DNA of 64,000 nt from a virus (taxonomy: Duplodnaviria; Caudoviricetes). The position numbers were made by a program, and so were the translations under genes. The notes beneath the pieces were generated by a model, which saw only the letters and a list, made by a program, of their open reading frames with translations, ran no database searches and was not told the DNA's origin. The DNA lies in IMG/VR virus record IMGVR_UViG_3300015607_004593, positions 1-64,000 of that record, one strand, 5' to 3'. This document shows positions 9,556-50,856 of this stretch, one piece after another (position 1 is the stretch's first letter; each line of letters opens with the position of its first letter).

Positions 9556-11166
9556 TCATAATGATTCTTTAGTTGGAGATTGTTCTCCTCCTCCTTCTTC
9601 TTCACTTTCTCCTTCATCTGGTGTTCCTAGCAACGATGAATCATTCTCTTCATCTCCACCAAATAAATCATCTCCACCTTCAGTATTATCATCAGTATTA
9701 TTTTTACTTGATTTATTTTCTTCAATCTCACTTAACATTTGTTCTTTTAGTATTGCAATCTTATCGTCTGTCAATCTTAAAATTTCTTTCCATATAAATT
9801 CTTTTGAAATAAATGTACCTTCTAATTGTTGTGCTTCATTAACCATAGAAATTCTTTCAGAAAGAATTTCTGCATCCTTTAATTCAGAATAATAAGAATC
9901 TCTTTGAAAATCTATAAAGAGAAAAGGTTTAATTCTATACCAATCAGAAGGAGTAATAATTGATTTTAAAATTAATTGCTTTCTTAATAAATCATAAAGA
10001 AAAAGAATAAATTTCTTTCTTTGTTTATCAATAAACCTTGAGAATTTTAATTCTTCTCTAATGATTGCAGAATCTTTTGAAAAAGTAATAGAAGCATCGG
10101 GTTGAAGTCTTGTCAAAGGTACATTTAAAGATTTATATAATTTTTCTCTGAAGTAAGTAACATCATCTAAATTTGAAAGATTTGTTCCTCCTTCTAAAGT
10201 TTGAATTTCTGTAGAACGAGTTCCACCGCGTCTAGGTAGCCAATAATCTTCCATCATTGAAAGTACATTCTTTTTATCAACAATTTCGCCCGTGGAAGGG
10301 TCATACACCATTTTGTTTCTATGCCTTGCAATTTGTTCTTTAAGATATTCATCTGCTTTATTTTTTGGTAAATCACCTGTATCTACATAAAATACTCTTC
10401 TTTCCGGCGCTCTTGCTAGACGATAAATGATAAGAGCCGATTCAATCATAGATAATTGATTTGCAACTTTCATTGATTTATGAAGAGGAGAAAGAATGAT
10501 TCCTGTTTTTGGGTCTACTAGACCTGAATTTGAATAAGCAATAGAATCACAAGAAATCTTAATGTCATTTTGACTATTAAAATCACCTGTTTCCGAATAA
10601 CTAAAATATTCATTAACATGCTTAATAACAGGAACATTCTTTTCATCTAAAACTCTCTCAATAATTTTTATTTTTTTAATAGTGAGAGCATCTAATTGTC
10701 TAACGTCTAAAATACCTGCTTTTGGATTTTTCATATCAATAAGGATATGAAAAAATATTCTTCCATCAACGTACCATCTACGGCAAAAATCATAAGCATT
10801 GTTTTGAAAATCTAAAAGATTTACAAGGTAATCAAATTCCTTTTTTATCTTATTTCTAAATTCTTTTTTATAAGGTAAATCTGAAATAACCAATGAAACA
10901 ATTGGTAAATTTTCTGAAGTAACAATCATTTCATTTATAATTTCTTCTATAGCTCTATCCACTTCAGGTATAAAAGAAAGTTCTCTGTATTTTTTTATTA
11001 ATTCTTTATCTGTTGTTACAGAAGTATTTTGTTCATAAGAAAATATAGAAGATAATGAAGTCCCGAATGATAAAGCGCCAGCATCTTCGTCCTTTGGGAC
11101 AATAGCCTTTAAATCTTCTAATTGATTTTTTTTCGGGTCTTTTATTTCCCAACCTAAAATTTTCAT
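9556..11166 (-). CDS. gp20: Portal protein (gp20-like)
   Basis: RRWYVDGR, IYRLARAPERRVFYVDTGDLPK, EDYWLPRRGG, REELKF. Confidence 0.98.
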   Translation of the reverse strand: MKILGWEIKDPKKNQLEDLKAIVPKDEDAGALSFGTSLSSIFSYEQNTSVTTDKELIKKYRELSFIPEVDRAIEEIINEMIVTSENLPIVSLVISDLPYKKEFRNKIKKEFDYLVNLLDFQNNAYDFCRRWYVDGRIFFHILIDMKNPKAGILDVRQLDALTIKKIKIIERVLDEKNVPVIKHVNEYFSYSETGDFNSQNDIKISCDSIAYSNSGLVDPKTGIILSPLHKSMKVANQLSMIESALIIYRLARAPERRVFYVDTGDLPKNKADEYLKEQIARHRNKMVYDPSTGEIVDKKNVLSMMEDYWLPRRGGTRSTEIQTLEGGTNLSNLDDVTYFREKLYKSLNVPLTRLQPDASITFSKDSAIIREELKFSRFIDKQRKKFILFLYDLLRKQLILKSIITPSDWYRIKPFLFIDFQRDSYYSELKDAEILSERISMVNEAQQLEGTFISKEFIWKEILRLTDDKIAILKEQMLSEIEENKSSKNNTDDNTEGGDDLFGGDEENDSSLLGTPDEGESEEEGGGEQSPTKESL

Positions 11167-11242: not shown

Positions 11243-12376
11243 TTACAAAGTTAAATAGAGTTCTGATAATGAAATTGTTTTTTCTTCCCCACTTTCTATA
11301 TCCTTAACAGTAATATTTGTTTCTTCATGTAGACATTCATCAATAAACAAACAATTATGAACATTCACACCATTGGCAATAAATGAATGAACATCTTTTA
11401 CATCTGTTAAATCAACAACAGTTGTATTTTTATTATAATTTAAATCTATTTCAGAAATGATTGCTTCTGTTGAATGAAGAAGTGTTCCGAAAGATTCTTC
11501 AGGTAAAAATTCACTAGCTTGTTTGAATATCCCAAGTTTTTTATCTTTGATAAGATGGTCTTTTGTGCAAATTAAAGAAGTTTCTTTTTCATTGAAAAGA
11601 AAAGGAAGGAATGAAATTTTTATAACTGGTTTATAAGAAACAGAAAACCCTGAAAAATCTTTGAAACCATCTGAAGTTAAAACTTGATAATCGTTATTAG
11701 GATAAAACCCATTAGGAATAACATCTTTATAATGAGTATCTATAAAATCTCTAATCCTTCCATATAAAATTTTTCCAGGTTTTTTTGAAACCGTTATAAA
11801 AGAATCTATAGAGACACAAGAAATAGGCATACCTCTGATGTTTGAAGAAGAAGATGCAGAAGCTAATACTTTAGAACCATTTTCAAGAACAATATAAGTT
11901 TTTGACCATTCTAAAACTCCCTGTTGAAGAAATTTAGGTAAGTTTTGATAAGCTAACTTTATTCGTGAAAGAATATCAATGGCTGTTGATGCTTTATTTG
12001 CTAAGATTGCTACAGTCTTTGATGAATTAAAAAGGACATAATGAAGTATAAAAATTGCAGAGATTGTTGAATTATGAGAAAGAATATTATTTGTAAAATA
12101 CCTTTCACCTTCTACTGAAATATCAAAACATTCTTTTTCTCCAATACTTTCTACAGAAACTACTTTTGATGAAGAATATAATGAATTATTAATTTTAATA
12201 TTTTTTTCAAAAGAATCCTTTGCAAAAATTTCATCATCATTATCTTGAATAAGTATATGTTCTTCTGCACACTCTAAAGTATTTCCATCCTCAAAAACTA
12301 ATCTACAGGAAGGAATATTAGTTAATTTAATTATAGAATTTAAACATTCAAAACCTGAAGGTGTTAAAATTTTCAT
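11243..12376 (-). CDS. gp17: Terminase large subunit middle fragment flanked by split-intein halves (IntC 102 aa / extein 84 aa / cis mini-intein 155 aa / CLFIDE / IntN 30 aa)
   Basis: Extein STISAIFILHY...AILANKASTAIDILSRIKLAYQNLPKFLQQGVLEW...ENGSKV...IRG...CLFIDE is the gp17 ATPase from just after Walker A Lys to Walker B; intein ends SHN|S and VHN|C; C-terminal CLHEETNITV...ISLSELY. Confidence 0.9.
   Translation of the reverse strand: MKILTPSGFECLNSIIKLTNIPSCRLVFEDGNTLECAEEHILIQDNDDEIFAKDSFEKNIKINNSLYSSSKVVSVESIGEKECFDISVEGERYFTNNILSHNSTISAIFILHYVLFNSSKTVAILANKASTAIDILSRIKLAYQNLPKFLQQGVLEWSKTYIVLENGSKVLASASSSSNIRGMPISCVSIDSFITVSKKPGKILYGRIRDFIDTHYKDVIPNGFYPNNDYQVLTSDGFKDFSGFSVSYKPVIKISFLPFLFNEKETSLICTKDHLIKDKKLGIFKQASEFLPEESFGTLLHSTEAIISEIDLNYNKNTTVVDLTDVKDVHSFIANGVNVHNCLFIDECLHEETNITVKDIESGEEKTISLSELYLTL
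11354..11818 (-). mobile_element. Cis mini-intein in TerL fragment
   Basis: C1 (CVSIDS), block B ICTKDH, terminal FIANGVNVHN followed by Cys. Confidence 0.9.
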
Positions 12377-12414: not shown

Positions 12415-12450
12415 AAAAAAACCTAGAAACTTTTTTGTTTCTAGGTTTTT
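12415..12450 (-). terminator. Intrinsic terminator after tail sheath gene
   Basis: AAAAACCTAGAAAC...GTTTCTAGGTTTTT inverted repeat. Confidence 0.75.
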
Positions 12451-12480: not shown

Positions 12481-14913
12481 TTATAAACCTTCAATTTCAG
12501 TAAATGACATTGAAGAATCTGACCTAACTCCTACAAAGTCCAAATAAATGAAATTGATACTTCTTGATGGTTTAATAGCAAACAAGCTATGGAATTCATT
12601 TCTATCAATAACTTCAGGGCCATTATTATCTGAATCACAAGTAATTCTAAATCCACCCTTTTGAATTCCTCTTCGTGCCTCAACGTCTCTAAAGATAGGC
12701 GTTGTGGTCATTTTGTAAATTTCGCGGGTTGTTTCATCATTGAATTCAAAGAGGAAATATTTTGAAATCTTAGAAACTGCTTTCTTTAGATAAATGAACA
12801 ATCTTCTTACACCAATACGAGAGAAAGCTGAGGGTTTTAAGGTTGTAGTCTTATCACCTAATAAAATAGTTCCTTCTCCCACAAAGGATACAACAGGATT
12901 AATAGATGCTTGATACAAATCATCTCTTTCTCCTGATAACTCTGCACCTGAGAAAGCAACAATACCGAAGTCTGCACCTGGGTTCCATGCTAATTTAGTA
13001 ACATTAGCAACTTTTCCTCTGTTAAATCCGGCTGGCGACCACCAAGGATCGTTTGTATAATCAGTTCGCGCACAAAGACCGGCAATGTCAGGATTTAAAG
13101 GCAACCAATGGAAAGTGTCATTGTATCTATCATATTGATACTTCCATCCTGAATCCATGACTGCATAAGTTGAATCATAACCAACTGCATTTTTATAAGA
13201 AATAACATCTTCTAACTCTTTTCCTCTATTATCTAATACTGCTTCTAAAGGAGGAGAATAGAACATTACACAATCTTGTCTAACTTCAACAACATTAGAA
13301 ATTACCCAATTCACAATAACTGGATTTAGGTATTGTCCCATGATAATTAATGAAACATCAACTGAATTTGGATTTCTGAACAAATAGAATCCATTAATTA
13401 CAGTTGCTAAATTTTCATCATTCAAAGTTCCAATATCATTATCGGAAACCCCTGAAGCTAAAGAAATCTTTGAATAGATGTTATTAGGATTATCATTTGG
13501 GTCTTTTGAAACTTTAACAGTGATAACGTTATCACCTGAAGCAACAGTAGAAATTATTCCAGGAATGATAGTAATCTTATTCAAAGAATTATTTCTTGAG
13601 AATTCAGATTGTTTTAAAATTCTTCTTATACCTGAAGCCTTCTTTTCGTACACAACATCAATATTTTGAAATTGAGATAGAGTTGTAGAAGGTAAAGCTA
13701 CATCATAAGCAGTTGCCGTAACAGCCTTAGTTTCTGCTCTTGTAATTACAATCGTAACAATACCATGCTCAGTTAATCTATCAGCATCAATAGTGAAAGT
13801 ATCACCAGAAAGGTCAACAGTATAATCAGAAGATAAAAGAGTTTCAGGAGTAGATGCTGAATCTCCAAGGAAAGTAACTACAAAGGTATCTCCAGTTATA
13901 ATATCAACTGAAGAAGTAGTATCAACAATAACAGTTTGTGTTGCAACAGGAGTTACATCAAAAGTTAATGTTTTAGTTTGAGTAAATGTTACATTACCGG
14001 ATGCTGAAACAACTTCAGGTTTCAAAAGTAAATTTGAACCAGAAATACTATAAAGAGTAGGTTGAATTGTTGAAGTAGACCCGCCGGTAGGAGTATAGGT
14101 TAAAGCTCTTGTTGCTGCTGTAATAACTGAACCTGCTGTCAAAGCTACCGTAATATCTGTAATAGAAACATTATGAACAATTTGTTTTCCAGAAAGAATA
14201 TCTGAAATATTTTTCTCTCCTACCCAAATATAAGAAGAACCATTATTAATTGCAGTCTTATAATACTTAGATGAACCATCGTATTTTCTTGCACCCGGAA
14301 CAAAAGACAATCCTTCAAATTTTTCAATAATAGAAAGATAAGAGTCTGTTTGCCATTTCTCTCCAGTATCTAAAACTACTAAAGAAAATTCTCCATCGGC
14401 AGGAGGATAATCAAAGGCCGTTTTATAAGCCCAATGAGGGAATGAATATTTATCAGCAATTGAAATAGCAATAGAATTTCCAAGTGCAGAAGGATATTTA
14501 GCAGCAAAAGCTACATTCGCCAACAAACCTGAATTTCTTCTTGATTCAAACTCTTTATCATTTTTAATGATTAAATCTGTAACTGTAGAAACTACTCCAT
14601 CAATAATAACTGCATTTGCATTTCTTGCATTATCGCCAACTAAACGAACAACCTTTAGATTATTACCATAGACAAAGAAATTTGCCATAGTAAAGAAATC
14701 TTGATAAGTTGATTGTTTAGGATTAGTAGTATCAATAGTTGGTTTATAGAACTTTGATACAATATCGTTCTCAGAAAATAAAGAAACTAACTCTTCACAT
14801 CTTCCCCATTCTGAAGCAATAACGGTTGCAGCAGTTGTAGTAGAAATGCTTGGAGAAGAAAGAGAATAATCCTTCTCTGTACTTAAAATACCCGGACTTA
14901 ATAAGTAAGCCAT
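12481..14913 (-). CDS. gp18: Contractile tail sheath protein (gp18-like) with a Thr/Val-rich insertion
   Basis: LLSPGI, DSGWKYQYDRYND, DIAGLCARTD...WWSPAGFNRG, RIGVRRLF, FEFNDETTR, IKPSRSINFI. Confidence 0.97.
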   Translation of the reverse strand: MAYLLSPGILSTEKDYSLSSPSISTTTAATVIASEWGRCEELVSLFSENDIVSKFYKPTIDTTNPKQSTYQDFFTMANFFVYGNNLKVVRLVGDNARNANAVIIDGVVSTVTDLIIKNDKEFESRRNSGLLANVAFAAKYPSALGNSIAISIADKYSFPHWAYKTAFDYPPADGEFSLVVLDTGEKWQTDSYLSIIEKFEGLSFVPGARKYDGSSKYYKTAINNGSSYIWVGEKNISDILSGKQIVHNVSITDITVALTAGSVITAATRALTYTPTGGSTSTIQPTLYSISGSNLLLKPEVVSASGNVTFTQTKTLTFDVTPVATQTVIVDTTSSVDIITGDTFVVTFLGDSASTPETLLSSDYTVDLSGDTFTIDADRLTEHGIVTIVITRAETKAVTATAYDVALPSTTLSQFQNIDVVYEKKASGIRRILKQSEFSRNNSLNKITIIPGIISTVASGDNVITVKVSKDPNDNPNNIYSKISLASGVSDNDIGTLNDENLATVINGFYLFRNPNSVDVSLIIMGQYLNPVIVNWVISNVVEVRQDCVMFYSPPLEAVLDNRGKELEDVISYKNAVGYDSTYAVMDSGWKYQYDRYNDTFHWLPLNPDIAGLCARTDYTNDPWWSPAGFNRGKVANVTKLAWNPGADFGIVAFSGAELSGERDDLYQASINPVVSFVGEGTILLGDKTTTLKPSAFSRIGVRRLFIYLKKAVSKISKYFLFEFNDETTREIYKMTTTPIFRDVEARRGIQKGGFRITCDSDNNGPEVIDRNEFHSLFAIKPSRSINFIYLDFVGVRSDSSMSFTEIEGL

Positions 14914-17426: not shown

Positions 17427-19406
17427 TTAAATTATTTCATTTATAGAAGTAAAATTATTCACTAAAGAAAGAGAAAGAATTCTATCCATCTTAGATTCAA
17501 ACAATTCTGATTTATGAGAAATAACAAATATAGAAGTATCTAAAGAAATCCTTTCTAAAAGTCCAATGACAAGTTCTGTTGATTGAGGGTCTAAAGAAGA
17601 ATCAGTAATTTCATCACAGAAAAGAATATTTGCATTTAATGAATTCTTCATCTTGGAAATCTCTCTCCAAGTAAACAACAAAGCTAAATCTATTTTCATT
17701 TTTTGACCATCAGAAAAAGATTCATAAGAAAAATTATCTCTATATCTTGATTTAATAATCTCATTAAAATTTTCATCAAAACGAAAATCAATAGAAAGAT
17801 TTAACTCTTCTAAAAAAATATTTAATAAATTATTAATCTTTGGTAGATATTCTTTTATGATAAGAGTCTTTACACCATCATCTTTTAATAAAAACTGACA
17901 GAACTCATAATAATCAGTTTCTTCTATTAAATTAATTAATTCATCCTTTTTTTCATTTAATAAATTATTTTTAATAAAAATTAATTCTTCTTCTTTTATA
18001 ATATCTACATCTAAAGATAAAGTAGAAGAAGATGTTATTAATTCATTTATAATTGATATATAAGAGTTCTTTTCATTTAACAATCTTTCTTTTAAAGAAA
18101 TAATAGATTTATAATAATCTAATCCTTTAGATACTTCTTTATAAAAAGAGGATAATTCATTTAATGATTCTTCTAAAGAAGAGATATGTTTATCAGTATT
18201 GATTATCTTTTCATTTAAAACTAATAACTTTTCTTCTTTCATTTTATCATTAATAACTTGAGAACAAGTAGGACAAGAATTATTTTCTTTATAGAATAGT
18301 TTTGATTGTTCTAATTTATTCTTCTTATCTATATCTCTATTCTTAGAATAGATAAGTTTATTTTCTTTTTCTTTAAAATTTCTTTCTAAGACTTCTATAT
18401 TACCAAACTTTTGTTCTATATTCTTTAATTCTTGATTCTTTTCTTCTAAAGAAATATCTAAATCTTTTATCTTTTGTTGAAAAAGAGAAATCTTTTCTTG
18501 ATTATTTTCTTTATTTTTTTCTATCAGTAAAAGAGTCTTTTGTATTAACTCTTTTATATAGGATATTTCAGAAGTAAGTTCTTTTATTTCAATCTTTTTT
18601 TCTTTTATTTGTTCTAATAATTCTTGAGATTTATTCTTTGCTGTTTGATTCATCAAAGAAAAAATATCTATATGAAGAAGTGATTCAATAATTTTTCTTC
18701 TATCTGCTTTAGCTAATTTCATAAAAGGAATATAATTTCTTCCTCCTACTACAATAACTGTAGTAAAGGTTTTAAAATCAGTTCTTAATATTTGTTCTTC
18801 TAAGTATTTTTGAAAATCTTTACTCCTAGAATCTTGTTTTAATATGGTTCCATTCTGTTCTATTTCAAACCTTGATGGTTTCAATCCTCTTTTCACTACA
18901 TAAGAATTTCCGAAGCAATCAAACTCAACTTCTACAAGACAATCTTTCTCATTGATAGAATTGATAAGTTGATTTAAATTTACTCCTCTTGTTGTTTTTC
19001 CAAAAAGACAAAAAGTTAAAGCTGTATGAATAGAAGAATTATGAGAAAGGATTCCATTAGAATAAAATCTCTTTTCTTTAGAAGCTAAAGAAACATCATA
19101 CATTTCTTCTTCTATTCCTAAATTTTGAACATAAATTACTTCTTCTATTCCATTTTTAGTTTGGATTGCTGATTCAAAAGGAACTAAGTCTTTTACAAAG
19201 ACTTCATTCATAAAATGATCAAATACAATATGATTATCAGCACATTCAATAAAAAGTCCTGATTCAACTACTATTTTATATTTTTTATAAGGAATAGTTT
19301 TATGAACGTAATCTATATCCACCCAACCTTCATCGGTTTCTATTTCTAAATCTTCTAATGAAAAAGAAGAGGTAAATTTTCTTTCAATTGAATTTGATAG
19401 GGACAT
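17427..19406 (-). CDS. gp46: gp46 (Rad50/SbcC-like ATPase), C-terminal piece preceded by a 123-aa IntC
   Basis: IntC ends FYSNGILSHN|S at 19038; then ALTFCLFGK, LINSIN, CPTC zinc hook, FSDGQKMKIDLALLFTWR, CDE Walker B, VISH. Confidence 0.95.
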   Translation of the reverse strand: MSLSNSIERKFTSSFSLEDLEIETDEGWVDIDYVHKTIPYKKYKIVVESGLFIECADNHIVFDHFMNEVFVKDLVPFESAIQTKNGIEEVIYVQNLGIEEEMYDVSLASKEKRFYSNGILSHNSSIHTALTFCLFGKTTRGVNLNQLINSINEKDCLVEVEFDCFGNSYVVKRGLKPSRFEIEQNGTILKQDSRSKDFQKYLEEQILRTDFKTFTTVIVVGGRNYIPFMKLAKADRRKIIESLLHIDIFSLMNQTAKNKSQELLEQIKEKKIEIKELTSEISYIKELIQKTLLLIEKNKENNQEKISLFQQKIKDLDISLEEKNQELKNIEQKFGNIEVLERNFKEKENKLIYSKNRDIDKKNKLEQSKLFYKENNSCPTCSQVINDKMKEEKLLVLNEKIINTDKHISSLEESLNELSSFYKEVSKGLDYYKSIISLKERLLNEKNSYISIINELITSSSTLSLDVDIIKEEELIFIKNNLLNEKKDELINLIEETDYYEFCQFLLKDDGVKTLIIKEYLPKINNLLNIFLEELNLSIDFRFDENFNEIIKSRYRDNFSYESFSDGQKMKIDLALLFTWREISKMKNSLNANILFCDEITDSSLDPQSTELVIGLLERISLDTSIFVISHKSELFESKMDRILSLSLVNNFTSINEII

Positions 19407-19473: not shown

Positions 19474-19716
19474 TTATCTATTTTTATTTTGTATATGATT
19501 TTGTTTTGCATATTCATATAGTTCTCCAAGAGACACAGTGAAAAGTTCTAATGTATTTTTATTTCTTATAGTTACTAACGTATTTTTATCTAAGCATTTT
19601 CCAAATCCATTTGTTCCAAAGATTGCTGTTTTTGAAACCTTATCTAATTCTATTACTGATGGAATGTTCCCAAAAGAAAGAAAATTTTTAATGCTTAATT
19701 TTTTAAAGTGTATCAT
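19474..19716 (-). CDS. gp46: gp46 N-terminal piece (40 aa) plus 40-aa IntN
   Basis: FKKLSIKNFLSFGN...GTNGFGK (Walker A) | CLDKNTLVTIRNK...VSLGELY. Confidence 0.93.
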   Translation of the reverse strand: MIHFKKLSIKNFLSFGNIPSVIELDKVSKTAIFGTNGFGKCLDKNTLVTIRNKNTLELFTVSLGELYEYAKQNHIQNKNR

Positions 19717-26779: not shown

Positions 26780-26989
26780 TTAAAAATATTTTAAAAAAAT
26801 CCTTATCATGGAAACGATGATAGCTAAAGGTAATCCTATGAATAATATAAGTAAAAATAATGAGTTACAAAATACCTTACAAAAAGGTGAGATAAAATAA
26901 TCTCCTTTAAAATAATAATAACACTTTTTATTTTCCTTTTTGCTTTCATCATTTGTATCTTTTATACAATCATTCTCATTCTTAACCAC
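26780..26989 (-). CDS. Possible small membrane protein (start uncertain)
   Basis: Hydrophobic C-terminal helix; the track ORF to 27073 overlaps nrdJ. Confidence 0.4.
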   Translation of the reverse strand: MVKNENDCIKDTNDESKKENKKCYYYFKGDYFISPFCKVFCNSLFLLILFIGLPLAIIVSMIRIFLKYF

Positions 26990-29900
26990 ATTTACTCCAT
27001 CCACAATCTTGACAAGATAAACATCCTTCCTTGTAAATGAATTGATGCGAACCACACTCAGGACAAACTTCACCCTTTACCTTTGTTCCTTCTGAAATAT
27101 ATTTTTTCAACATTCTTTTGACTCCATTCTTCCAATTGGTAATAGATTCTGAATTATCAATCTCAAGAGAATCAATCAAAGAAATAACATTAGGTAAAGG
27201 CATACCATGTCTTAAGATACCAGAAACTAATCTTCCTATGTTCCAATATTCTCGGTTAAATGCCCTTGAAAGACCTTTGAATTCTTGGACAAAACCATCT
27301 TTATCTACCCAAACTAGATTATAAATGTTTTTAGATAAAGTTTCTGATTTCTCTTTAACAATTTTACCTTCTGTGACATAAGAAGGAATGTAAACAAATT
27401 CCTGTGGCCCTGTAAAAACTTCATAGGGTTTATTATCCAATAAACCTAAGAATCCAATCCATTTATCTCCTTTATTTGAAAATCTAATAATATCACAAGG
27501 AAGTGATTTTCCTCTCTTTGGTGCATGATTTTCTTTGAAGATATTAATTTTATTTTCTTCATTTGAAGAAGAATGAAGCAATACTCCTGAACGACATTTA
27601 TCTCTATAGACAGTTATTCCCTTACAACCCGATTTCCATGCTTCAAAGAAATAAGATTCTACAACATCTTCAGAAGCAGTCTCAGGCAAATTTCCTGTTG
27701 AAGAAATTGAATGATCAACGAATTGTTGTATTGCTCCTATCATTCTTACTTTTTCAAGAGGGTCAATTTCATTGGCCGTTGAATTATAATAAGGAGAAAG
27801 TTTAATAAGTTCAATCATTTCTTCTTTATTAAGGTGGTCAAGATAAGAACAATGATGATTAATTGTTGCCCAATCTTGAAACTTAGGATGAACTACATTA
27901 TATTCTTCCCAATGATCACCAAGTTCATCAATAAAATGTGTTGTAGACGTTTTATCATTAGGATTAATCTTTCTTCGTCTCACATAATAAAGTGAGATAA
28001 CGGGTTCAACTCCTGATGATGTTTGAGTCAACAAAGAAACACTTCCAGCGGGAGCAATAGTTAAAGATGAAATATTTCTCCTACCAAATGTTTTATATCT
28101 TTCTCTCAATTCAGGCATTTCTTCTAAGTCTAAAACACGATTAAGAAAAGGATTATCTTTTTCTTTCTCATAATTCCATATTGGAAAAGAACCACGTTCT
28201 TCGGCCATCTTTACAGAAGAAACTAAAGAATAATAAGCTAACTTAGAATGAACTAATGTTGAAAACTCTGTAGCCTCTTGAGTAGCATAACGAAGTCCAA
28301 GAGCGGCTAACATATCAGCTTCAGCAGTAATACCTAAACCAGTTCTTCTACCTGATTTCAATTTATGATGAATTTCATTCCAAAGAGACAATTCAATAAG
28401 TTTTATTTTCAATTCTTCAGGGTCATGATTTTTTATCTTTTCAATAATCTTTAAAATCTTTTCTTCTTCAAGGTCAACAATATCATCCATGAGCCTTTGG
28501 GCAATTTCTACATGTTTCTCAAACAAAGAGAAATTAAAGGTTGCCCTTTTTGTAAAGGGTTCCTCAACAAAAGAATAAAGATTAAGTAAAAGTAAACGAC
28601 AAGCATCTCCAACAGCTAAAGGAATTTCACCACATGGATTAGTTGTTACTGTTTTGAAACCTTCATCAGAATAACAGTCAGCGGGAGATTCAGAAATTAC
28701 TTTTGACCAAAGAAAAATTCCTGGTTCACCTGATTTCCAAGCATTGTGTACAAGCTTTTTCCAAATAGGAAGTGGGTCAATCTCCCGCGAAATAATAGGA
28801 TTATCGGAATCAATTGGAAACTTTTGAATAAAGGGTTTCTTGTTCACAATAGCATCTAAAAATTCATCCGAAAGTTTTACAGAAATATTTGCTCCCGTTA
28901 CTTTCTTTAATTCTAATTTGGCATCAATAAAATCTTCAGCATCTGGATGTTTAACGTCAATAGATAAGAGTAATGCACCCCTTCTTCCAGAGTTATGAAC
29001 ATAGAAACAATTTCCAAAGAAAAGATGTTCTTTTTCTAATACTAAATCATAAACTTCAACCAATTCATCATCAAACATTCCTTCGATTGTTTCAACATAA
29101 TCTTTAAATAAAGTAATTTTATTATCTAATCCTAATTCCTCTTTTAATTTAACACATACTGAATAAGAAAGATGTTGTTTACTTGAAGAAATATAATCAT
29201 GTTTTCCTGCATTTGTATTAAAATCCTTTGTTGTATAAATTGATGATGTCCAATCATTCCTCTTTTCTTGTAAAGGAAAAGAATTTACTTTAATAGATTC
29301 TACCATCAAAGAATAAAACAATTTTTGATTTTGTGACCCGTCAATTGAAAGTAAATAGAGAGTTTTCCAATTTTCATTTTTACGAACTTTGGTATGAATC
29401 TTACTTCTAATTCCCCATGAGTAAAAAATTTGTTGAATTAAAAGTAAAAAGTTTTTAGATGTAGAAGTCATTGAAAAGGATTTCTTTCCTTTCTCGAAAC
29501 ATCCATCAGCATCAAAAAAACCAGAAATAAAGGAGAAAACGATTTCTTTCTTTGCCGTTAATAAAAATTCAGGAAACTTTATTGAATGACTCTTTTCCTT
29601 TAGACAAAAATCATCTTGCAAAAACTTAACAATTAATTTTGAATGAATTTTCAATTTTTTATAAGTTTTTTTGTCTTGTATCTTTGCATCATAATTGAAT
29701 AATTTTTTAACAATAATTTTATTCTTTTCTATAACTTCATCCCATGATGAAGTTATTTCAATTTCACAAGCATTGTCTGTATATCCATTCCCATAACAAT
29801 TGCCAAGAAAATAAGCAAATTCTTCATCTAGTATATTAGGGAAAGTTATATCAGTATTAAGTCTATTACTATGATTAGTGAATGAAGAAACATAATCATT

Positions 29901-32900
29901 AACATTTAAAATAATATCTTTTCCGTTCCAACCTTCACCAATAATAGCAGTAACATCATCTCCTTCAGACAAATCCTTTAATTTCTTTTCACCTTCAATA
30001 GTATGAATAACATGGTCAAGTGAACAAATTATTTCATTTCCATACTTTGATATTAATTTTGAAACAGATTTATTATTCTTAATAACATCAATAACAGTTA
30101 CAAATCCATTCTTTGTCCAAACCTTTGTTCCTTGTTTAATATCTTTAATTTTTACTAAACCATGTTCCGTTAAAACTAAAGTATCACCATATAAACATTG
30201 TGCTACTTCTCTTGTTGTATTTGAGTATCGTTCCATAAAAGGAACAACCCCGGTAGCTGTTATTGCAGCATTATTAACAGGTGAATCTTTTGGACGAATA
30301 TGAGATAAGTCTAATCCAACTCCACAATTGTGAATATTAACTAATCCAAAATTTCCTGAATAAAAATTATTAGTTTCTTCTACTTCTAAATCAATATAAT
30401 TTAATGATGTTTCATCATTTAAAATTGATGTTATAAAAATTCCCTGATTTATTTCATTATATTGTTGATTGTTAATAAGATTATTGTTTAATAATTCTAA
30501 TTTCTCAATTTTATCATCATTAACCATAAATGATTTAATTAGGTTAATAATATTAACTTCTGAACAATGAATCTTAATTCCATAAAGTTTATGATGCTTA
30601 GTATTCTTTGGAATTCTTTCAAAAGACTTAAATGATACTCCAATTGATGATAAAAATGACGACACACCATCAATAATAGATTTTGCACAAAGTTCTAATG
30701 AAATTTCATTTGAATCATTAATTGTTCCATCTGTATCAATTAAACCAGCAATAAATGGAATCCATAAATTATTTTGAACAATAAATGAAGGTATTTTTGC
30801 TGAATATGTTTTTCTTCCTGTTTGATTGTCAAAATATTTTTCAATAACATCATTTATATTAGAATGATTATTTGAATATTCCCAAACATCTACTTTATAA
30901 GCTTTCTGTTTAGATTTAATATAATTACTTTTTGATTCAGTTAATTCATTAAGAATATTTGCATAATGTTTTACTACATTTTCATTATTGTTTAAAATTC
31001 TCATACGAAGTTTCAAAGAAACATGTTCATTTGTCTCTTTGTCTGTTTTTTGTTTAATTTGTCCACAAGTTCCGTCACCAATATGTGAACCAATAAACCA
31101 ACCAATATTACTTAATGAAGTATCAAAATTTAATTTAATATCTTGAAGTTCAGGTTTTATTCCTACTTCACCCAAAGAAATGTCTCTTACATTCTTGTAT
31201 TCATAATTTTCATTTTTAATTAAAATAGGATGATTCTTTGAAGTCTTTAATTCAGTTCCATTACTAAAGATAATCTTTACTCTATCTTCTTCATTTACTT
31301 CAGACTTAAATTTATTCAATACTTTCTTAAATTCACTTTTCTTTTTTTGTAAATTAAACGATAAAATATAATCTCCAATTTCAACATCTTTTAATTTAAT
31401 GATTCCTTTTTCTAAAGTACAAACATAAGAATCTTCTTCTACACACCTACGTTTCATTAGGTGGGCAAGCTCTTGATCAAGTTGAAGAATCCCACCATAA
31501 GAATCGGAATTATTTCCGACAACGTTGCAATTATGACAAATTACATTGTTCACTACATAGGATTCATCATCTTCTACTGACAAATTATATACCCAACCAG
31601 TAAATTCCTTTTGTTCTTTTTTAAAGTTTTTTATTAGCCTGATAGTTTCAACATCATTACTTTCATCAATATAAGGGATAAGTCCATTAAATTCTAACTT
31701 TTTTTCTATTCTATCATCATCATAATTCTTTTTTGAATGTTGACGAAGTTCATTTGAAAGATAACCAGACAAATACATATTTGTTGCATCTTGATAATTT
31801 TTATTTTTTGCTAAGGTATTATTAAATACATATCCTAAAGATATTGCTAATGCTTGTAAATTATTAATAAGTGTTTTGTTTGTTATAGTTAATTTTATCG
31901 AACCATTTCTACAAACACAACCATTTGAATCAAGAACTCCTAATAAAAATGATTTTTTTATTTCATAAGAAGAATGCCAAATTAAATCAGGAATCTTTTT
32001 ATTTTCAAATCCTCTTCCACAAATTTCACTAAAAAAATCAGCAAGAATTTTATTACCTTTTCTAACATTATTAAAGTTTTGTTTATTAATATCACCGTTA
32101 ATATAAAAATCACATCCAAATTTATTTTCAAGAATTTGTTTGATAGTTAATAAATTTTTTTGATCTTTATTTGAAAAGGTTATAGTAATTCCTTTTAATT
32201 TCTCACCATCTTTATGATTTGAATATACACACCCATCTCCAATGAACACACCAAGAACATAAGCAAAGTTTTCATCGAGATTTATAAACCTATTGATAGA
32301 ATGACTATTTTTTTGTGAATTTGATCCCCATCTACCAATAAATTTTGTTTTTAATGAAATTTTAGATTGATCAAGAATAATTTCTTGATCATGTCTTTGT
32401 TTTACAAAATTTAAAAGATCAAATGTATAATCATTAGTTTCATGTTGAAAATTTAATAACATTAACTTTTGATTATTTTTAGATTCAACCCAAATACCAT
32501 TTCCATTATAAAATGGATGTTCAGGTGTCACTTCAATTGAATTTGTTAATAATGAAGAAGTATAAACATCTATATTTCCTTGATAATAACGGGACATAAC
32601 ATTTACAACAGCTTTCCATAATCCTTTATGTGAAAGAACAAAATCTCCAATTTTTACTTCTGAGATTTTTTTATATCCTTTATTTGTCAAAACAAAATTA
32701 TTTTCTGTGAAACAATTCCCTAATGAAGTCAAATGTTCATTGTTCCCGATTCCAGCCATGGGTGAACCTTGAGGAACAATGTATCTAAAATCCTTAAAGG
32801 TAGAATAAATTTCTTCTTCAGTTAAAGGATTATCGTATTTTTGTTCAATTCTAGCAAATTCCTTTGCCATTCTTTTGTGCATATCATCAGGAGATTTTTC

Positions 32901-33020
32901 TAATAAATTTCCTTCTTTATCTTTAAGAAGGTATTTGTTGACACAAACATCAGCAGCTAAAACATCATCATTAAAATAAGATTTTGTTGCTTTTAAAACT
33001 TCATCTCTTGAGTAAATCAT
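26982..33020 (-). CDS. nrdJ: Class II (B12-dependent) ribonucleotide reductase with three inteins; about 842 aa after splicing
   Basis: PQGSPM, SLGN|C, SGRRGAL, TNPCGEIPL, TIAPAGSVS, TSSGVEP, KGITVYRD, C-terminal CPECG...CQDCGWSKCG. Confidence 0.95.
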   Translation of the reverse strand: MIYSRDEVLKATKSYFNDDVLAADVCVNKYLLKDKEGNLLEKSPDDMHKRMAKEFARIEQKYDNPLTEEEIYSTFKDFRYIVPQGSPMAGIGNNEHLTSLGNCFTENNFVLTNKGYKKISEVKIGDFVLSHKGLWKAVVNVMSRYYQGNIDVYTSSLLTNSIEVTPEHPFYNGNGIWVESKNNQKLMLLNFQHETNDYTFDLLNFVKQRHDQEIILDQSKISLKTKFIGRWGSNSQKNSHSINRFINLDENFAYVLGVFIGDGCVYSNHKDGEKLKGITITFSNKDQKNLLTIKQILENKFGCDFYINGDINKQNFNNVRKGNKILADFFSEICGRGFENKKIPDLIWHSSYEIKKSFLLGVLDSNGCVCRNGSIKLTITNKTLINNLQALAISLGYVFNNTLAKNKNYQDATNMYLSGYLSNELRQHSKKNYDDDRIEKKLEFNGLIPYIDESNDVETIRLIKNFKKEQKEFTGWVYNLSVEDDESYVVNNVICHNCNVVGNNSDSYGGILQLDQELAHLMKRRCVEEDSYVCTLEKGIIKLKDVEIGDYILSFNLQKKKSEFKKVLNKFKSEVNEEDRVKIIFSNGTELKTSKNHPILIKNENYEYKNVRDISLGEVGIKPELQDIKLNFDTSLSNIGWFIGSHIGDGTCGQIKQKTDKETNEHVSLKLRMRILNNNENVVKHYANILNELTESKSNYIKSKQKAYKVDVWEYSNNHSNINDVIEKYFDNQTGRKTYSAKIPSFIVQNNLWIPFIAGLIDTDGTINDSNEISLELCAKSIIDGVSSFLSSIGVSFKSFERIPKNTKHHKLYGIKIHCSEVNIINLIKSFMVNDDKIEKLELLNNNLINNQQYNEINQGIFITSILNDETSLNYIDLEVEETNNFYSGNFGLVNIHNCGVGLDLSHIRPKDSPVNNAAITATGVVPFMERYSNTTREVAQCLYGDTLVLTEHGLVKIKDIKQGTKVWTKNGFVTVIDVIKNNKSVSKLISKYGNEIICSLDHVIHTIEGEKKLKDLSEGDDVTAIIGEGWNGKDIILNVNDYVSSFTNHSNRLNTDITFPNILDEEFAYFLGNCYGNGYTDNACEIEITSSWDEVIEKNKIIVKKLFNYDAKIQDKKTYKKLKIHSKLIVKFLQDDFCLKEKSHSIKFPEFLLTAKKEIVFSFISGFFDADGCFEKGKKSFSMTSTSKNFLLLIQQIFYSWGIRSKIHTKVRKNENWKTLYLLSIDGSQNQKLFYSLMVESIKVNSFPLQEKRNDWTSSIYTTKDFNTNAGKHDYISSSKQHLSYSVCVKLKEELGLDNKITLFKDYVETIEGMFDDELVEVYDLVLEKEHLFFGNCFYVHNSGRRGALLLSIDVKHPDAEDFIDAKLELKKVTGANISVKLSDEFLDAIVNKKPFIQKFPIDSDNPIISREIDPLPIWKKLVHNAWKSGEPGIFLWSKVISESPADCYSDEGFKTVTTNPCGEIPLAVGDACRLLLLNLYSFVEEPFTKRATFNFSLFEKHVEIAQRLMDDIVDLEEEKILKIIEKIKNHDPEELKIKLIELSLWNEIHHKLKSGRRTGLGITAEADMLAALGLRYATQEATEFSTLVHSKLAYYSLVSSVKMAEERGSFPIWNYEKEKDNPFLNRVLDLEEMPELRERYKTFGRRNISSLTIAPAGSVSLLTQTSSGVEPVISLYYVRRRKINPNDKTSTTHFIDELGDHWEEYNVVHPKFQDWATINHHCSYLDHLNKEEMIELIKLSPYYNSTANEIDPLEKVRMIGAIQQFVDHSISSTGNLPETASEDVVESYFFEAWKSGCKGITVYRDKCRSGVLLHSSSNEENKINIFKENHAPKRGKSLPCDIIRFSNKGDKWIGFLGLLDNKPYEVFTGPQEFVYIPSYVTEGKIVKEKSETLSKNIYNLVWVDKDGFVQEFKGLSRAFNREYWNIGRLVSGILRHGMPLPNVISLIDSLEIDNSESITNWKNGVKRMLKKYISEGTKVKGEVCPECGSHQFIYKEGCLSCQDCGWSKCG
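28992..30197 (-). mobile_element. NrdJ intein 3 (402 aa, LAGLIDADG endonuclease)
   Basis: Q|CLYGDT ... FISGFFDADG ... FYVHN|S. Confidence 0.93.
30327..31445 (-). mobile_element. NrdJ intein 2 (373 aa, LAGLIDADG endonuclease)
   Basis: R|CVEEDS ... FIAGLIDTDG ... VNIHN|C. Confidence 0.93.
31530..32714 (-). mobile_element. NrdJ intein 1 (395 aa, LAGLIDADG endonuclease)
   Basis: N|CFTENN ... VTPEHPF ... LGVFIGDG ... VICHN|C. Confidence 0.93.
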
Positions 33021-33064
33021 ATTTTTTTATTATTCCTAAAAAAGTAAATTTAAAGATAAATCTT

Positions 33065-41433: not shown

Positions 41434-42927
41434 TTAAGTTTCTGTCTCTTCCCAATAATCAGTATTTTCATCTTCATCATTTTCATCTTCACTATTAGCT
41501 AAAACAGCACCATAAAGAAATTTAGTTGAAATTATTTTATCTAATTTTTCCATAAGGTCGTTTGTAAAAAATAATTCAGGATTTCGATTGATTTCTTTTT
41601 TGAAAACCTTCTTATCTGAAGAAGGAAAAATAAATCTATTACCTACAGACTTTACTAAGTCTGCTGAAACCATTTCATCTAAGATACCATGATAAAGAGA
41701 GAGTCCTGAAGAAAAATTGATAAAAATATCAACAGTAGAACCTTCTCTCGTAAACCTAGATTTTTCCATCTTACAATGGACAATGTTTCCTACAAATTCA
41801 GTTCCTTCTTTTTCTTTTCTTTTTGAAAGTAAACAAATAGTTGATGAAATATATTGTCCACCTGAATTATGAGAAAGTACACCATTAGAAAGAATATAAT
41901 GATGACCATCCTTTACTTCAATATCGTAGACTTCATTTCTTCCAATACTTTCAATTTTTATGATTTGAGCATTTTCATTATAAAGAGTATCCTTCGTATC
42001 TAAGTAGATTCCTTCCTTTAAATCCTTTGCTTTTATCCAATCTCCTTTGAATCTAAATTTGTGTTTCTTACTACAAACAATCGTTGAATCATCAAAAAAT
42101 GTAAGTCTGATACAATCTGGATTTGGTTCTATTAATGTAGAAGGATTCCAAACAGTAGAAACTTTACTAGCCCCATATTCAGTTTGAACTAAATCTCCCT
42201 CTTGAATTTCTTCAATACAACGAAGTGTCCCATCAGCCATTAAAATTTGAGTACCTTTCGATAAACATCCACCACCTACAACAGCTTGAGGGTAAAGTCC
42301 ATTTTGAGACATATAAATGTGATTAGTAACAATGAAAGGAACATTTAAAATTCCAAGTTTTAAAGATATGACCCTAAAGATAGATTTGATTAATTTTGCT
42401 CTTGTCATATCTTGAGTTTCTTTTCCTTCCGTTGAATCACTTACTTCCTTTACTGTAGAAAGATTTCCTAATGAATCTAAACAAATAAACAATTTTAATT
42501 CTTCTCTTTCTTTCTCAGGAATTTTTTCATATTCTTCTAATATTTGAATAGTTTGAAATCTTAATTCTTGGGCAGTAAGAATTGGACAAAACAAAACCCG
42601 TGAGGTATCAATTCCAAAATTTTCCATGGTGTCTTTTCTTTGAGCGGATTCAGTTTCAAAGAAAACAACATTTGCTTTTGGATACGTTTTTAAAAACCTT
42701 GAAATCATTGTTAGAAGAATAAAAGATTTCCCAACCCCAGGTGGCCCTGCAAGCATTGAAACTTTATTATCAGGAAATCCCTTAAACATTGAACCTGAAA
42801 TAGCAGCATTTAATAAGAAAGAGCCGGTATCAATAAACCCTGAAAGGTCGCCAACAATTCCATCTGACACAACTGAAGAATTTTTATTTCCAATCTTCTT
42901 TTGAACCATCTTTAGAAATAATGACAT
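41434..42927 (-). CDS. uvsX: UvsX/RecA-like recombinase with mini-intein
   Basis: IDTGS, AGPPGVGKS, DSLGNL, DMTRAK, VTNHIY, KSRF. Confidence 0.96.
   Translation of the reverse strand: MSLFLKMVQKKIGNKNSSVVSDGIVGDLSGFIDTGSFLLNAAISGSMFKGFPDNKVSMLAGPPGVGKSFILLTMISRFLKTYPKANVVFFETESAQRKDTMENFGIDTSRVLFCPILTAQELRFQTIQILEEYEKIPEKEREELKLFICLDSLGNLSTVKEVSDSTEGKETQDMTRAKLIKSIFRVISLKLGILNVPFIVTNHIYMSQNGLYPQAVVGGGCLSKGTQILMADGTLRCIEEIQEGDLVQTEYGASKVSTVWNPSTLIEPNPDCIRLTFFDDSTIVCSKKHKFRFKGDWIKAKDLKEGIYLDTKDTLYNENAQIIKIESIGRNEVYDIEVKDGHHYILSNGVLSHNSGGQYISSTICLLSKRKEKEGTEFVGNIVHCKMEKSRFTREGSTVDIFINFSSGLSLYHGILDEMVSADLVKSVGNRFIFPSSDKKVFKKEINRNPELFFTNDLMEKLDKIISTKFLYGAVLANSEDENDEDENTDYWEETET
41866..42267 (-). 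mobile_element. UvsX mini-intein (134 aa)
   Basis: GGG|CLSKGTQILMADG ... CSKKHKF ... NGVLSHN|S. Confidence 0.95.
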
Positions 42928-49094: not shown

Positions 49095-49326
49095 ATTCTA
49101 TCCATGTTGAACGGTCTGAATCTCTATTCTTCTTTTCTAAAATTCTTATATAACACTTAACGACTGTATTGGATTCATGAGGCATCATTACATCTTTCCA
49201 ATAAAAAAATCTTTCTTTTCTTAAAAAGAAATTTAAAATTTTTTGAAAAAAGGTAAATTGTTTCTCTTGAGCAACAAATAAAGTTTTATCACAATTTGAT
49301 ATAATTCTATATTGTTTTCTTTTCAT
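49084..49326 (-). CDS. Hypothetical protein inserted between gp44 and gp62
   Basis: ATGA overlap with gp44. Confidence 0.6.
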   Translation of the reverse strand: MKRKQYRIISNCDKTLFVAQEKQFTFFQKILNFFLRKERFFYWKDVMMPHESNTVVKCYIRILEKKNRDSDRSTWIEYES

Positions 49327-50720
49327 TTAAATCTTACCTCAGAAAGAATTTCAGTCAAACAAGCTAATAGATTGATTGATTTATCCATCATTGATGGGTG
49401 TCTAAATTCATATTGAGCTAGAGCTAAAATTATAGCAGGTAAACACTCAGGTTGTACAACTGATTTTAATTCTTTATAAAAATTTTTATAGAACATTTCA
49501 AAATTCATGTCTGAATTTTTTTCTACCCACTCTACTATTGAGTTAAATCTCTTTTCTTTCATAAAGAAAAGAATATCTTTAAAATCTAATTCTTTAGAGT
49601 AAGTTAAGAGTCCTTCATCAATCTTTCCTGAAATAGAATACTTTTGTAATTCATTTATAATTCTTCTAAAATCAGGAAAGTATCTATTGATTAATTCAAC
49701 AACCACTTCTTTTTTAAATTCAATATTCTCATTCTTTAAAATATCTTTAACTCGGTGAAAGAATTTTGTTTTTAAATCCTTATAATCTTCTTTAGGCCAT
49801 GTAAAGTCTATCACAGAACACCGTGAAAGAAGTTGAGGCATCATCTTCTCGATATAATTACAAGAGAAGAAAAATGTTATTTTTGAGTATTGTTCTATGA
49901 ATCCTCTTAAAGCCGTTTGAGTAGGCATAAGCATAGCATCACATTCATCAAAAATAACAGCCTTTGACCTTCCTTCTAAAGAAAGTGTAGTTACAAACGA
50001 AGTAACATCTTGTCTCAAAACTTCTATTGACCTTTGTTCAGAAGAATTGATAAAGAGATATTCAAAATCTAATTGATTACAGAGGGCTTTGATGCAAGTT
50101 GTGTTGTGATGAACAAATCCATTAGGCGTCACATAAAGATGGGGACTTTCGATAGAAATATCATAAACATCTCCAAAAGGAATTTCTTCTTTATATACAA
50201 TCTTTGAAAAATCACCAAGTAAAACATTATAAACATCTTCTGCTTCTTCAGCAAAAACAAGACCTTTAGATGAAGAAACAATATGTTTTCTTCCACAAAT
50301 AAAAGGATTCAAGTCATCATTAAAATGTAGTTTTATTTTTTTATCTTGTTTCTTAATCAATCCTTCTATTGGAACCCAAACATTTTCAGGAGTCTTTACA
50401 AAAACCTCTTCTTTATCAAATTCCTTTAATTCATTATAAGGAACTTCATCCATTTCAAAATAACTGAATAAATGTTCTAATGTAACTGTTATTTCTTTTC
50501 CTTTATAAAATTTATCTGAAAAAATAATATCTATTTCTTCAAACGGGTCTAAACATTTTCCACTTCCACCATTCGGTGAAGAGAACATTAGATTTGGACA
50601 ATGACCTGAGATAACAAAATTTTCAAGTGTTTTTTTAATAGCTTCAGGAAAAATACAATCTTTAATTTGTTTAGGGCGATACTTTTCTACCCAAATACGT
50701 TCATTAAGATTTACAGACAT
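49323..50720 (-). CDS. gp44: Clamp loader ATPase (gp44-like) with mini-intein
   Basis: WVEKYRP, GSGK|..|TT, FDECD, LSRC, FPDFRRIINELQ. Confidence 0.96.
   Translation of the reverse strand: MSVNLNERIWVEKYRPKQIKDCIFPEAIKKTLENFVISGHCPNLMFSSPNGGSGKCLDPFEEIDIIFSDKFYKGKEITVTLEHLFSYFEMDEVPYNELKEFDKEEVFVKTPENVWVPIEGLIKKQDKKIKLHFNDDLNPFICGRKHIVSSSKGLVFAEEAEDVYNVLLGDFSKIVYKEEIPFGDVYDISIESPHLYVTPNGFVHHNTTCIKALCNQLDFEYLFINSSEQRSIEVLRQDVTSFVTTLSLEGRSKAVIFDECDAMLMPTQTALRGFIEQYSKITFFFSCNYIEKMMPQLLSRCSVIDFTWPKEDYKDLKTKFFHRVKDILKNENIEFKKEVVVELINRYFPDFRRIINELQKYSISGKIDEGLLTYSKELDFKDILFFMKEKRFNSIVEWVEKNSDMNFEMFYKNFYKELKSVVQPECLPAIILALAQYEFRHPSMMDKSINLLACLTEILSEVRFK
50103..50555 (-). mobile_element. gp44 mini-intein (151 aa) in Walker A
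   Basis: GK|CLDPFE ... CGRKH ... VYDISIESPHLYVTPNGFVHHN|T. Confidence 0.93.
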
Positions 50721-50856
50721 TTTTATTTCCTTTTCTTCTTTTCAAAAAAGATAAAAGCATTATATAACAAAAAATAAAAAATCCTAGAATTTTCTAGGAT
50801 TTTTGTTTTTAGAAAACTACCTAACCTTGTTGTTGGTTTAGGTAGTTTCAAAAAAA

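Follow-up and report, generated by a model that had tools for sequence, protein, structure and literature searches.

A 64,000-nucleotide stretch of DNA (the window; bases 1–64000 of the 221,970-bp virus record IMGVR_UViG_3300015607_004593, here G000) from an uncultured T4-like phage carries an open reading frame (ORF) for a middle piece (M) of the large terminase subunit (TerL, the gp17 of T4). In M, a terminase segment (the extein) follows the C-terminal half (IntC) of one split intein, a, precedes the N-terminal half (IntN) of another, c, and is itself interrupted by a cis intein, b. Two further ORFs, elsewhere in the record, encode the N-terminal and C-terminal parts of the same enzyme, each with an intein half that would complete one of those on M. 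The parts are as follows, with a slash in a residue string marking an intein–extein junction.

11243..12376, minus strand: TerL middle piece (M), 377 residues, from the ORF list; IntC(a), extein, cis intein b, CLFIDE, IntN(c), stop
12071..12376, minus strand: IntC of split intein a, residues 1–102, ends TNNILSHN; matches PDB 6DSL_B and the gp41-1 intein
11819..12070, minus strand: TerL extein M1, 84 residues (103–186), starts STISAIF; from alignment to T4 gp17
11354..11818, minus strand: cis mini-intein b, 155 residues (187–341), CVSIDSF...ANGVNVHN, +1 Cys; independent E value 3e-14
11336..11353, minus strand: extein CLFIDE, 6 residues, the Walker B strand and catalytic Glu; read directly and aligned to the hhhhDE of intein-less TerLs
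11246..11335, minus strand: IntN of split intein c, 30 residues (348–377), CLHEETNITVKDIESGEEKTISLSELYLTL; Cys348 invariant in 16 homologues
G000 195196..195564, minus strand, outside the window: TerL N piece, 122 residues, ends ...HSIILSSRQTGK/CVSGETKITIKDDEGIEKEILISELYERLLLSLTEN
G000 188378..190948, plus strand, outside the window: TerL C piece, 856 residues, 117-residue IntC(c) and the remainder of TerL

The matches of both the M extein and IntC(a) are far above chance, the former to residues 166–257 of T4 gp17 (PDB 3ezk, E value 3e-18) and the latter (residues 1–102) to chain B of the Cat intein (PDB 6DSL_B, ‘Consensus engineered intein CatC’, E value 4e-5). Positions 12–110 of Pfam Terminase_6N match residues 104–198 of M, and the C-terminal end of the Pfam intein splicing domain matches residues 67–102. 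The extein M1 extends from the Ser following the Walker A Lys to just short of Walker B; this Ser103 stands directly after IntC(a) and is the +1 nucleophile. Cis mini-intein b has no endonuclease domain and was recovered as the second match of a self-built IntC/HINT model, and IntN(c) begins CLHEET, ends LYLTL and is closed by the stop codon at 11243–11245. An initial annotation, made from the letters of the window, had proposed this order of segments (102-residue IntC, 84-residue extein, 155-residue cis intein, CLFIDE and 30-residue IntN), and the proposal was exact to the residue when a script cut M at the motifs that the annotation had named. It had also reported no other TerL piece in the 64 kb; searched with a TerL query, the window contained no TerL extein besides that of M, with the intein half of a split gp46 gene as the sole other match.

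Using the full-length TerL of Vibrio phage vB_VmeM-32 and phrog_2 across the whole record, it was possible to locate both partners that the initial annotation had predicted, a TerL-N ending RQ.GK with a short IntN (195196..195564, minus strand) and an IntC joined to a TerL-C that starts just after Walker B (188378..190948, plus strand). The N piece consists of TerL up to the Walker A Lys (residues 1–86, ending SSRQTGK; matching T4 gp17 residues 86–167, PDB 3ezk), followed by the 36-residue IntN(a) and a stop. In the C piece, the 117-residue IntC(c) ends EFISKN and gives way to 32 TerL residues (CAFIPSN...KIIVVS), of which CAFIPSN... corresponds to the residues after Walker B in T4-type TerL, then to a second cis intein, d (381 residues, CVTKDTF...NIVGHQ), located in the motif III region (KIIVVS/TSNG) and carrying a LAGLIDADG-like remnant (Pfam), and finally to 326 residues that run from TSNGLNHYY... 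to the end. The Terminase_6C domain of this piece is weak (21.1 bits, slightly under the Pfam cut-off of 22.6), so that a Terminase_6C family search of the genome found nothing and the C piece was recovered by the protein query. Overall, the three loci are dispersed over the genome and over both strands (11.2–12.4 kb, minus; 188.4–190.9 kb, plus; 195.2–195.6 kb, minus).

Joined in silico, N(1–86), M(103–186), M(342–347), C(118–149) and C(531–856) form a 534-residue TerL that is colinear from end to end, through the ATPase and the RNase H-like nuclease, with intein-less T4-type TerLs from IMG/VR (L018, 549 residues; L036, 555 residues), with 0 gaps at the four junctions and 42% identity to L018. 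The junctions fall after the Walker A Lys (RQTGK/ST), before Walker B (PIS/CLFIDE), after the Walker B Glu (IDE/CAFIP) and in the motif III region (IIVVS/TSNG). Where the initial annotation had counted two trans-splicing reactions and one cis-splicing reaction, the trans count was right and the cis count was one too low; with the extra cis intein d in the C piece, four splicing reactions (two trans, two cis) would be needed rather than three. No other terminase was found in the record, which is rated 100% complete by CheckV, using Terminase_6N/6C, phrog_2, TerL_ATPase, Terminase_3, GpA_ATPase and full TerL protein queries. One Terminase_6N match (42613–42753) was rejected as a TerL, since it falls on the P-loop of a UvsX/RecA-like gene that carries an intein. 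An intact gp17 elsewhere and a lack of partner fragments would, according to the initial annotation, have made M a relic; the whole record has no such intact gene and has both partners.

AceL-TerL and the consensus Cat are atypically split inteins. Judged by their matches to both chains of 6DSL, split inteins a and c belong to this family with a short N and a long C half, which is already known from phage terminases. IntC(c) matches 6DSL_B (CatC) with an E value of 3e-6 and IntN(a) matches 6DSL_A (CatN) with an E value of 0.009, while IntN(c) is of the same sequence type as CatN and IntN(a) (55% identity to the latter). IntC(a) also matches residues 30–128 of the gp41-1 intein and so lacks just the first ~29 residues of the HINT fold. 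Both IntN halves are short, begin with Cys1 and end their ORFs (RQTGK/C plus 35 residues and a stop in the N piece; IDE/C plus 29 residues and a stop in M). The long IntC halves possess the expected catalytic positions, namely His40, Asp85, His101-Asn102 and Ser+1 in IntC(a), and a block B SLDH, a block F Asp, Asn117 and Cys+1 in IntC(c), with Lys, not His, as the penultimate residue of the latter. An AlphaFold2 model of M (16-row alignment; mean predicted local distance difference test [pLDDT] score, 77.6), read for pLDDT and secondary structure only, placed IntC(a) at pLDDT 80–95 and the IntN(c) tail, as strand-strand-helix, at 76–86, with low confidence in the linker (residues 343–350).

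The reading preferred here, with a probability of about 0.8, is that the single T4-type TerL of this phage is built from three separately encoded polypeptides joined by inteins. The short IntN tails would dock on the long IntC partners, as in Cat, AceL-TerL and GOS-TerL, and each docked pair would complete a HINT fold and trans-splice, at GK/STIS in Walker A and at IDE/CAFIP after Walker B, while cis inteins b and d could excise themselves at any time (PIS/CLFIDE and VVS/TSNG). The product would be the 534-residue TerL, and Walker A, Walker B and motif III would exist only after splicing. Protein trans-splicing by the fragment pairs is itself considered likely. As to origin, cis inteins at hot-spot sites were most likely split and the pieces scattered by genome rearrangement, and the three-piece layout was most likely kept because the gene is essential, not for any benefit of the split itself.

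A homologue search over 5.8 billion proteins returned middle pieces of the same design in 16 clusters. Five have the full architecture (P0001–P0005; 99, 63, 61, 48 and 48% identity to M) and 11 are shorter (214–241 residues), consisting of an IntC, the 84-residue extein, hhhhDE and an IntN; cis intein b is missing from these 11 of the 16, which close up exactly. Across the alignment of the 16 clusters, His40, Asp85, Asn102, Glu347 and Cys348 are invariant at 47–63% identity, and His101 and Ser103 almost so. N pieces that end RQxGK and continue into an IntN also occur in P0122–P0124 and P0126. By the Nei-Gojobori method, ratios of nonsynonymous to synonymous substitution (dN/dS), which are rough and were obtained with dS saturated in most comparisons, were 0.03–0.10 for the exteins (M1, 0.05–0.10), 0.22–0.57 for IntC(a), 0.16–0.28 for cis intein b, 0.22 for IntC(c) and 0.49 for cis intein d. 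For IntN(c), P0002 and P0003 differ with a dN of 0 and a dS of 0.31. Between the same two homologues (L127, L130), identity is 95% for the extein, 82% for cis intein b and 100% for IntN(c), and just 53% for IntC(a), a pattern suggesting that at site a the intein half was swapped or is evolving apart from the rest of the gene.

The surroundings of M are those of a T4-type structural gene region, and the position between gp18 and gp20 given in the initial annotation was confirmed by Pfam matches of the flanking genes.

12481..14913, minus strand: tail sheath gene (gp18-like), upstream neighbour of M; Pfam Phage_sheath_1/1C
12417..12450, minus strand: terminator-like hairpin between the sheath gene and M, with a 14-pair stem followed by a T run
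9556..11166, minus strand: portal gene (gp20-like), downstream neighbour of M; Pfam Portal_T4, E value 3e-152

The order of sheath gene and then M was seen in relatives from six independent samples (ENA, JGI and Logan contigs), and identical M proteins recur on contigs from independent samples of the same three sources. No other TerL parts were found near the middle pieces of relatives (tblastn of 13–21-kb loci; within 10 kb). A homologue of the C piece, P0128 (887 residues, 60% identity in the first 150), co-occurs with the M homologue P0002 in SRR31712301 and SRR31712310, on separate contigs. P0128 lies ~6 kb from two tail-tube paralogues in its contig, and the C piece of the phage studied here lies ~4.5 kb from homologous tail-tube genes at 182.6–183.9 kb (87% identity for one). 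With the M and C pieces of the relative in matching synteny, the dispersed layout is older than the split of the two phages. On contigs L129 and L131, a 284-residue NUMOD3-like endonuclease ORF lies immediately 5′ of M.

Among the best 120 homologues of M, which formed the census of architectures, contiguous TerLs were the largest class (n = 73), followed by a+c middle pieces (n = 16), a two-piece type that starts at IntC(a) and reaches the C terminus (n = 14) and middle pieces that end in an IntN at a QEFE/C site (n = 4); the remaining 13 comprised four that start with an IntC and lack Walker B and nine that keep the N-extein and mostly stop early. Going by these architectures, many environments together supply at least 20 protein clusters with the three-piece design (16 split at Walker A and B, four at Walker A and QEFE). 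A profile-free scan with IntC(c) and its extein returned 543 representatives at E ≤ 1e-3, with many C pieces of 437–500 residues, and a second kind of middle piece (230–254 residues) was present in metagenomes (P0156, P0163, P0172, P0174, P0180, P0186, P0238 and P0255), in which the IntC of the post-Walker-B site is followed by CAFxP, motif III and QE(F)x and then by an IntN at QEFE/C. Combined with splits at Walker A, these second middle pieces suggest that four-piece terminases probably exist in some phages. Among IMG/VR relatives, individual sites also differ in state, with the same intein b present in cis as the only intein of a contiguous TerL (L012), an IntN at site b (L016), an IntC(a) combined with cis intein b and another cis intein five residues downstream (L011), and the classical adjacent fractured layout (L040/G001 and L043/G002). 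As read from these sequences, at least five intein sites exist in the TerL of uncultured T4-like phages, each of them empty, cis or split. G001, the genome that contains L040, is that of a phage of 144,840 bp, complete and with direct terminal repeats, in which the TerL N piece, an endonuclease-like ORF and an IntC with the rest of TerL are adjacent. An in-frame TAG inside its IntC and another inside its N piece (L040 3160..3162; G001:C1:56356-56604) suggest that this genome translates TAG as an amino acid.

Several observations weigh against joining of the pieces in the proposed manner. Anatomy, colinearity, catalytic-residue conservation, purifying selection and recurrence are observed, and it is from these that splicing itself, its order and the correct pairing of the halves are inferred. 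IntC(c) ends SKN, with Lys where the penultimate His would stand, as also in relatives, and cis intein d ends HQ, with Gln in place of Asn and a Thr+1, as kept in a relative. Both of these unusual ends (TKN/C and VGHQ/T) are shared by the C-piece homologue P0128, and being kept there they are features and not damage. For IntN(c), the dN/dS between this phage and P0002 is ~1, over only 30 codons, and the saturation of dS noted above makes the other ratios a rough guide as well. Between the C and N pieces, in a genome of 28.6% GC, is a 3.3-kb block of 50–59% GC. The pairing of the halves is a further difficulty, as IntN(a) and IntN(c), at their 55% identity, both have a net charge of −5, and the site-a and site-c IntN segments of relatives are one sequence type, inseparable by similarity. 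Of 44 site-c IntN segments, 27 score nearer to the site-a IntN of this phage, and cognate pairing from IntN similarity was rejected as a guide since sites a and c are not separable. The IntC halves are 32% identical, with net charges of −9 (a) and +7 (c). Net charge was likewise rejected as an orthogonality code, as it fits the c pair (−5/+7) but not the a pair (−5/−9), in which an acidic IntC(a) faces an acidic IntN(a) and charge does not account for the pairing. The 16 middle pieces all have an IntC(a) that is acidic or neutral, together with an IntN(c) that is mostly acidic, and in the nearest relatives IntC(c) is basic; charge would work against self-pairing of M (IntC(a) with IntN(c)) and for the c pair, and it would even favour docking of the N piece on the C piece (IntN(a) with IntC(c)). 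Mis-pairing could yield an N–C product that skips M or, because M has an IntC...IntN topology, cyclised or concatenated M.

Other explanations account for parts of the same evidence. The pieces might assemble non-covalently, with the intein halves as dimerisation modules and with no peptide bonds formed. Atypical IntN/IntC pairs bind tightly before they react, which fits such an assembly, and one report (PMC3045599) describes a fragmented phage NrdA assembled through interaction domains without splicing. This is nevertheless very unlikely here, as the residues that serve only the chemistry (Cys1 of IntN(c), the block B His, the terminal Asn and the +1 Ser/Thr) are invariant or almost so in the 16 middle pieces and are retained in C- and N-piece homologues, and Walker A and B would remain interrupted by HINT domains of >130 residues inside the ATPase core. 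The layout is neither a relic nor an artefact. A decaying fractured terminase, in a phage that is defective or packages with another enzyme, is suggested by the eroded endonuclease of cis intein d (LGLIISEG and FDSKH, compared to LGLYIAEG and LFDGDG in P0128) and by pieces that lack an accompanying endonuclease gene, but the three intact ORFs, the low extein dN/dS, a record rated complete with no other terminase of five families and the retention of the architecture in several lineages and many samples make decay rate lower still, as highly improbable. Least probable, to the point of being barely credible, is a chimeric contig that brought together pieces from different phages or strains. The GC-rich block with its disrupted TnpB-like ORFs between the C and N pieces, and a run of 19 N at 151.4 kb in the record, are what such a contig might show; against it, six samples yielded independent contigs in which M is flanked by the sheath gene and by portal or tube genes, a relative has its C piece ~6 kb from the same tail-tube paralogues, the three pieces match one another exactly at their junction residues, and no contig near any middle piece has other TerL parts.

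The split may also be adaptive, in that three products must meet, which would place a dose or timing gate on packaging or guard against premature nuclease activity. All three ATPase motifs would be completed only by splicing, the three genes are spread over separate regions and both strands, so that the timing of transcription could differ, and an exact 18-mer, GAAAATTTAAAAAATAAA, is present in just two copies in the 222 kb (G000 188299..188316, plus strand; 195584..195601, minus strand), preceding the C piece by 62 nt and the N piece by 20 nt, within a similarity of ~37 nt at 76%. This 18-mer, missing upstream of the M piece, is possibly a shared regulatory site for the N and C pieces. The T4 late promoter motif, TATAAATA, however, is rare (8 copies in the 222 kb) and absent upstream of the three TerL pieces, and in relatives, close and distant, TerL comes interchangeably in one, two, three and probably four pieces, which fits a neutral spread of selfish elements better; an adaptive split is unlikely. 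As evidence of co-expression the late promoter was rejected, since in its rarity and absence it says nothing, and scans for sigma-70-type promoters remained at or under shuffle level. In this genome a self-built IntC profile matched three N-terminal IntC halves and no more (those of TerL-M, TerL-C and the split gp46), so that three related split inteins must coexist. That these three atypically split inteins (TerL a, TerL c and gp46) have co-evolved mutual orthogonality, and that the meeting of three products acts as a dose or timing gate, is a tentative idea held with considerable doubt, and the timing gate in particular is speculation. If orthogonality and gate were both true, the phage would show trans-splicing put to regulatory use in nature and would supply a set of short-IntN inteins, already orthogonal, for three-segment protein semisynthesis.

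The dnaE gene of Trichodesmium has two cis inteins and one split intein in two pieces, with a canonical long-N/short-C split, and shares with the TerL described here the combination of cis and split inteins in one essential gene, differing in that it comes in two pieces, not three. Among terminases, a split intein with an unusual 122-residue C part was described by Dassa et al. 2009 (PMC2677866). GOS-TerL (PMC2677866), AceL-TerL and Cat have in common with inteins a and c a short IntN that ends one ORF (here 30–36 residues), a long IntC that opens the next (here 102–117 residues) and holds block B as well as F and G, and a T4-type gp17 as host; they are, in contrast, described as two-piece systems with one split intein, at QEFE/CEFLG judging from relatives, whereas in this phage two split inteins (at Walker A and after Walker B) flank a 90-residue middle, with two cis inteins in addition. 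Fractured genes (PMC2677866) share the breakage of an essential phage enzyme gene by a split intein and the purifying selection on the fragments. Their layout, however, is an N half, a free-standing endonuclease gene and a C half, adjacent on one strand (PMC2677866), unlike the pieces here, which lie at 11, 188 and 195 kb on both strands, with the sheath gene, the portal gene and unrelated genes as neighbours and no adjoining endonuclease gene, and so fall outside that class. The same N-IntN, IntC-M-IntN and IntC-C design is used in engineered tandem trans-splicing (PMC12707363, PMC7210297, PMC7090010), where it is man-made, with inteins from different proteins, and is presented as engineered with no natural counterpart mentioned; here it is natural, within one protein, and uses two related inteins.

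In the full-text literature searched, Dassa et al. 2009 (PMC2677866) alone combines intein, gp17 and trans-splicing, papers on atypically split inteins, like those on tandem trans-splicing, present three-segment assembly as engineered, and a 2025 survey of actinophage inteins described no multi-piece terminases. Multi-piece terminases were not found in that literature, and a prior mention in subscription-only work, which lies outside it, is possible. Most likely, what is new here is the tandem use of atypically split TerL inteins, with the pieces dispersed over the genome, the family itself being known. Laboratories commonly ligate three fragments with two orthogonal split inteins, and nature appears to do the same here on an essential enzyme, with its three ATPase motifs all interrupted. 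If splicing occurs as proposed, closely related atypically split inteins could work side by side without cross-talk and would be a source of such pairs, with IntNs of 30–36 residues that are within reach of peptide synthesis. The phage would then also be a system for studying the ratchet-like break-up of an essential gene by selfish elements, and a warning for annotation, as TerL-based phylogeny, completeness estimates and packaging-type calls would miss or mis-size such terminases.

The GC-rich block between the C and N pieces (G000 ~191,200..194,400; L010 5200..8400; outside the window) contains a TnpB/IS605 OrfB-like gene that is rearranged into two parts, an ORF with HTH_OrfB_IS605 and a TNB domain fused to a DUF1351-like N terminus. 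The block had no match by megablast against phage records, and either a foreign insertion or an assembly join could account for it. Beyond TerL, the genome is unusually intein-rich, and the window includes the following.

17427..19406 and 19474..19716, both minus strand: gp46 (Rad50-like), split at Walker A (GK/S) by the third atypically split intein
26985..33026, minus strand: ribonucleotide reductase large subunit, 2014 residues, with about three inteins (two with LAGLIDADG/Hom_end)
41434..42927, minus strand: UvsX/RecA-like protein with a mini-intein
49326..50741, minus strand: gp44 clamp-loader subunit with an intein ahead of the AAA domain

The N part of gp46 is an 80-residue ORF that ends in GFGK and a 40-residue IntN, and its C part, 67 nt downstream, is a 659-residue ORF that opens with a 123-residue IntC ending ILSHN/SS. 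Many TerL pieces of other phages have an IntC(a) that is closer to this gp46 IntC than to the phage's own IntC(a).

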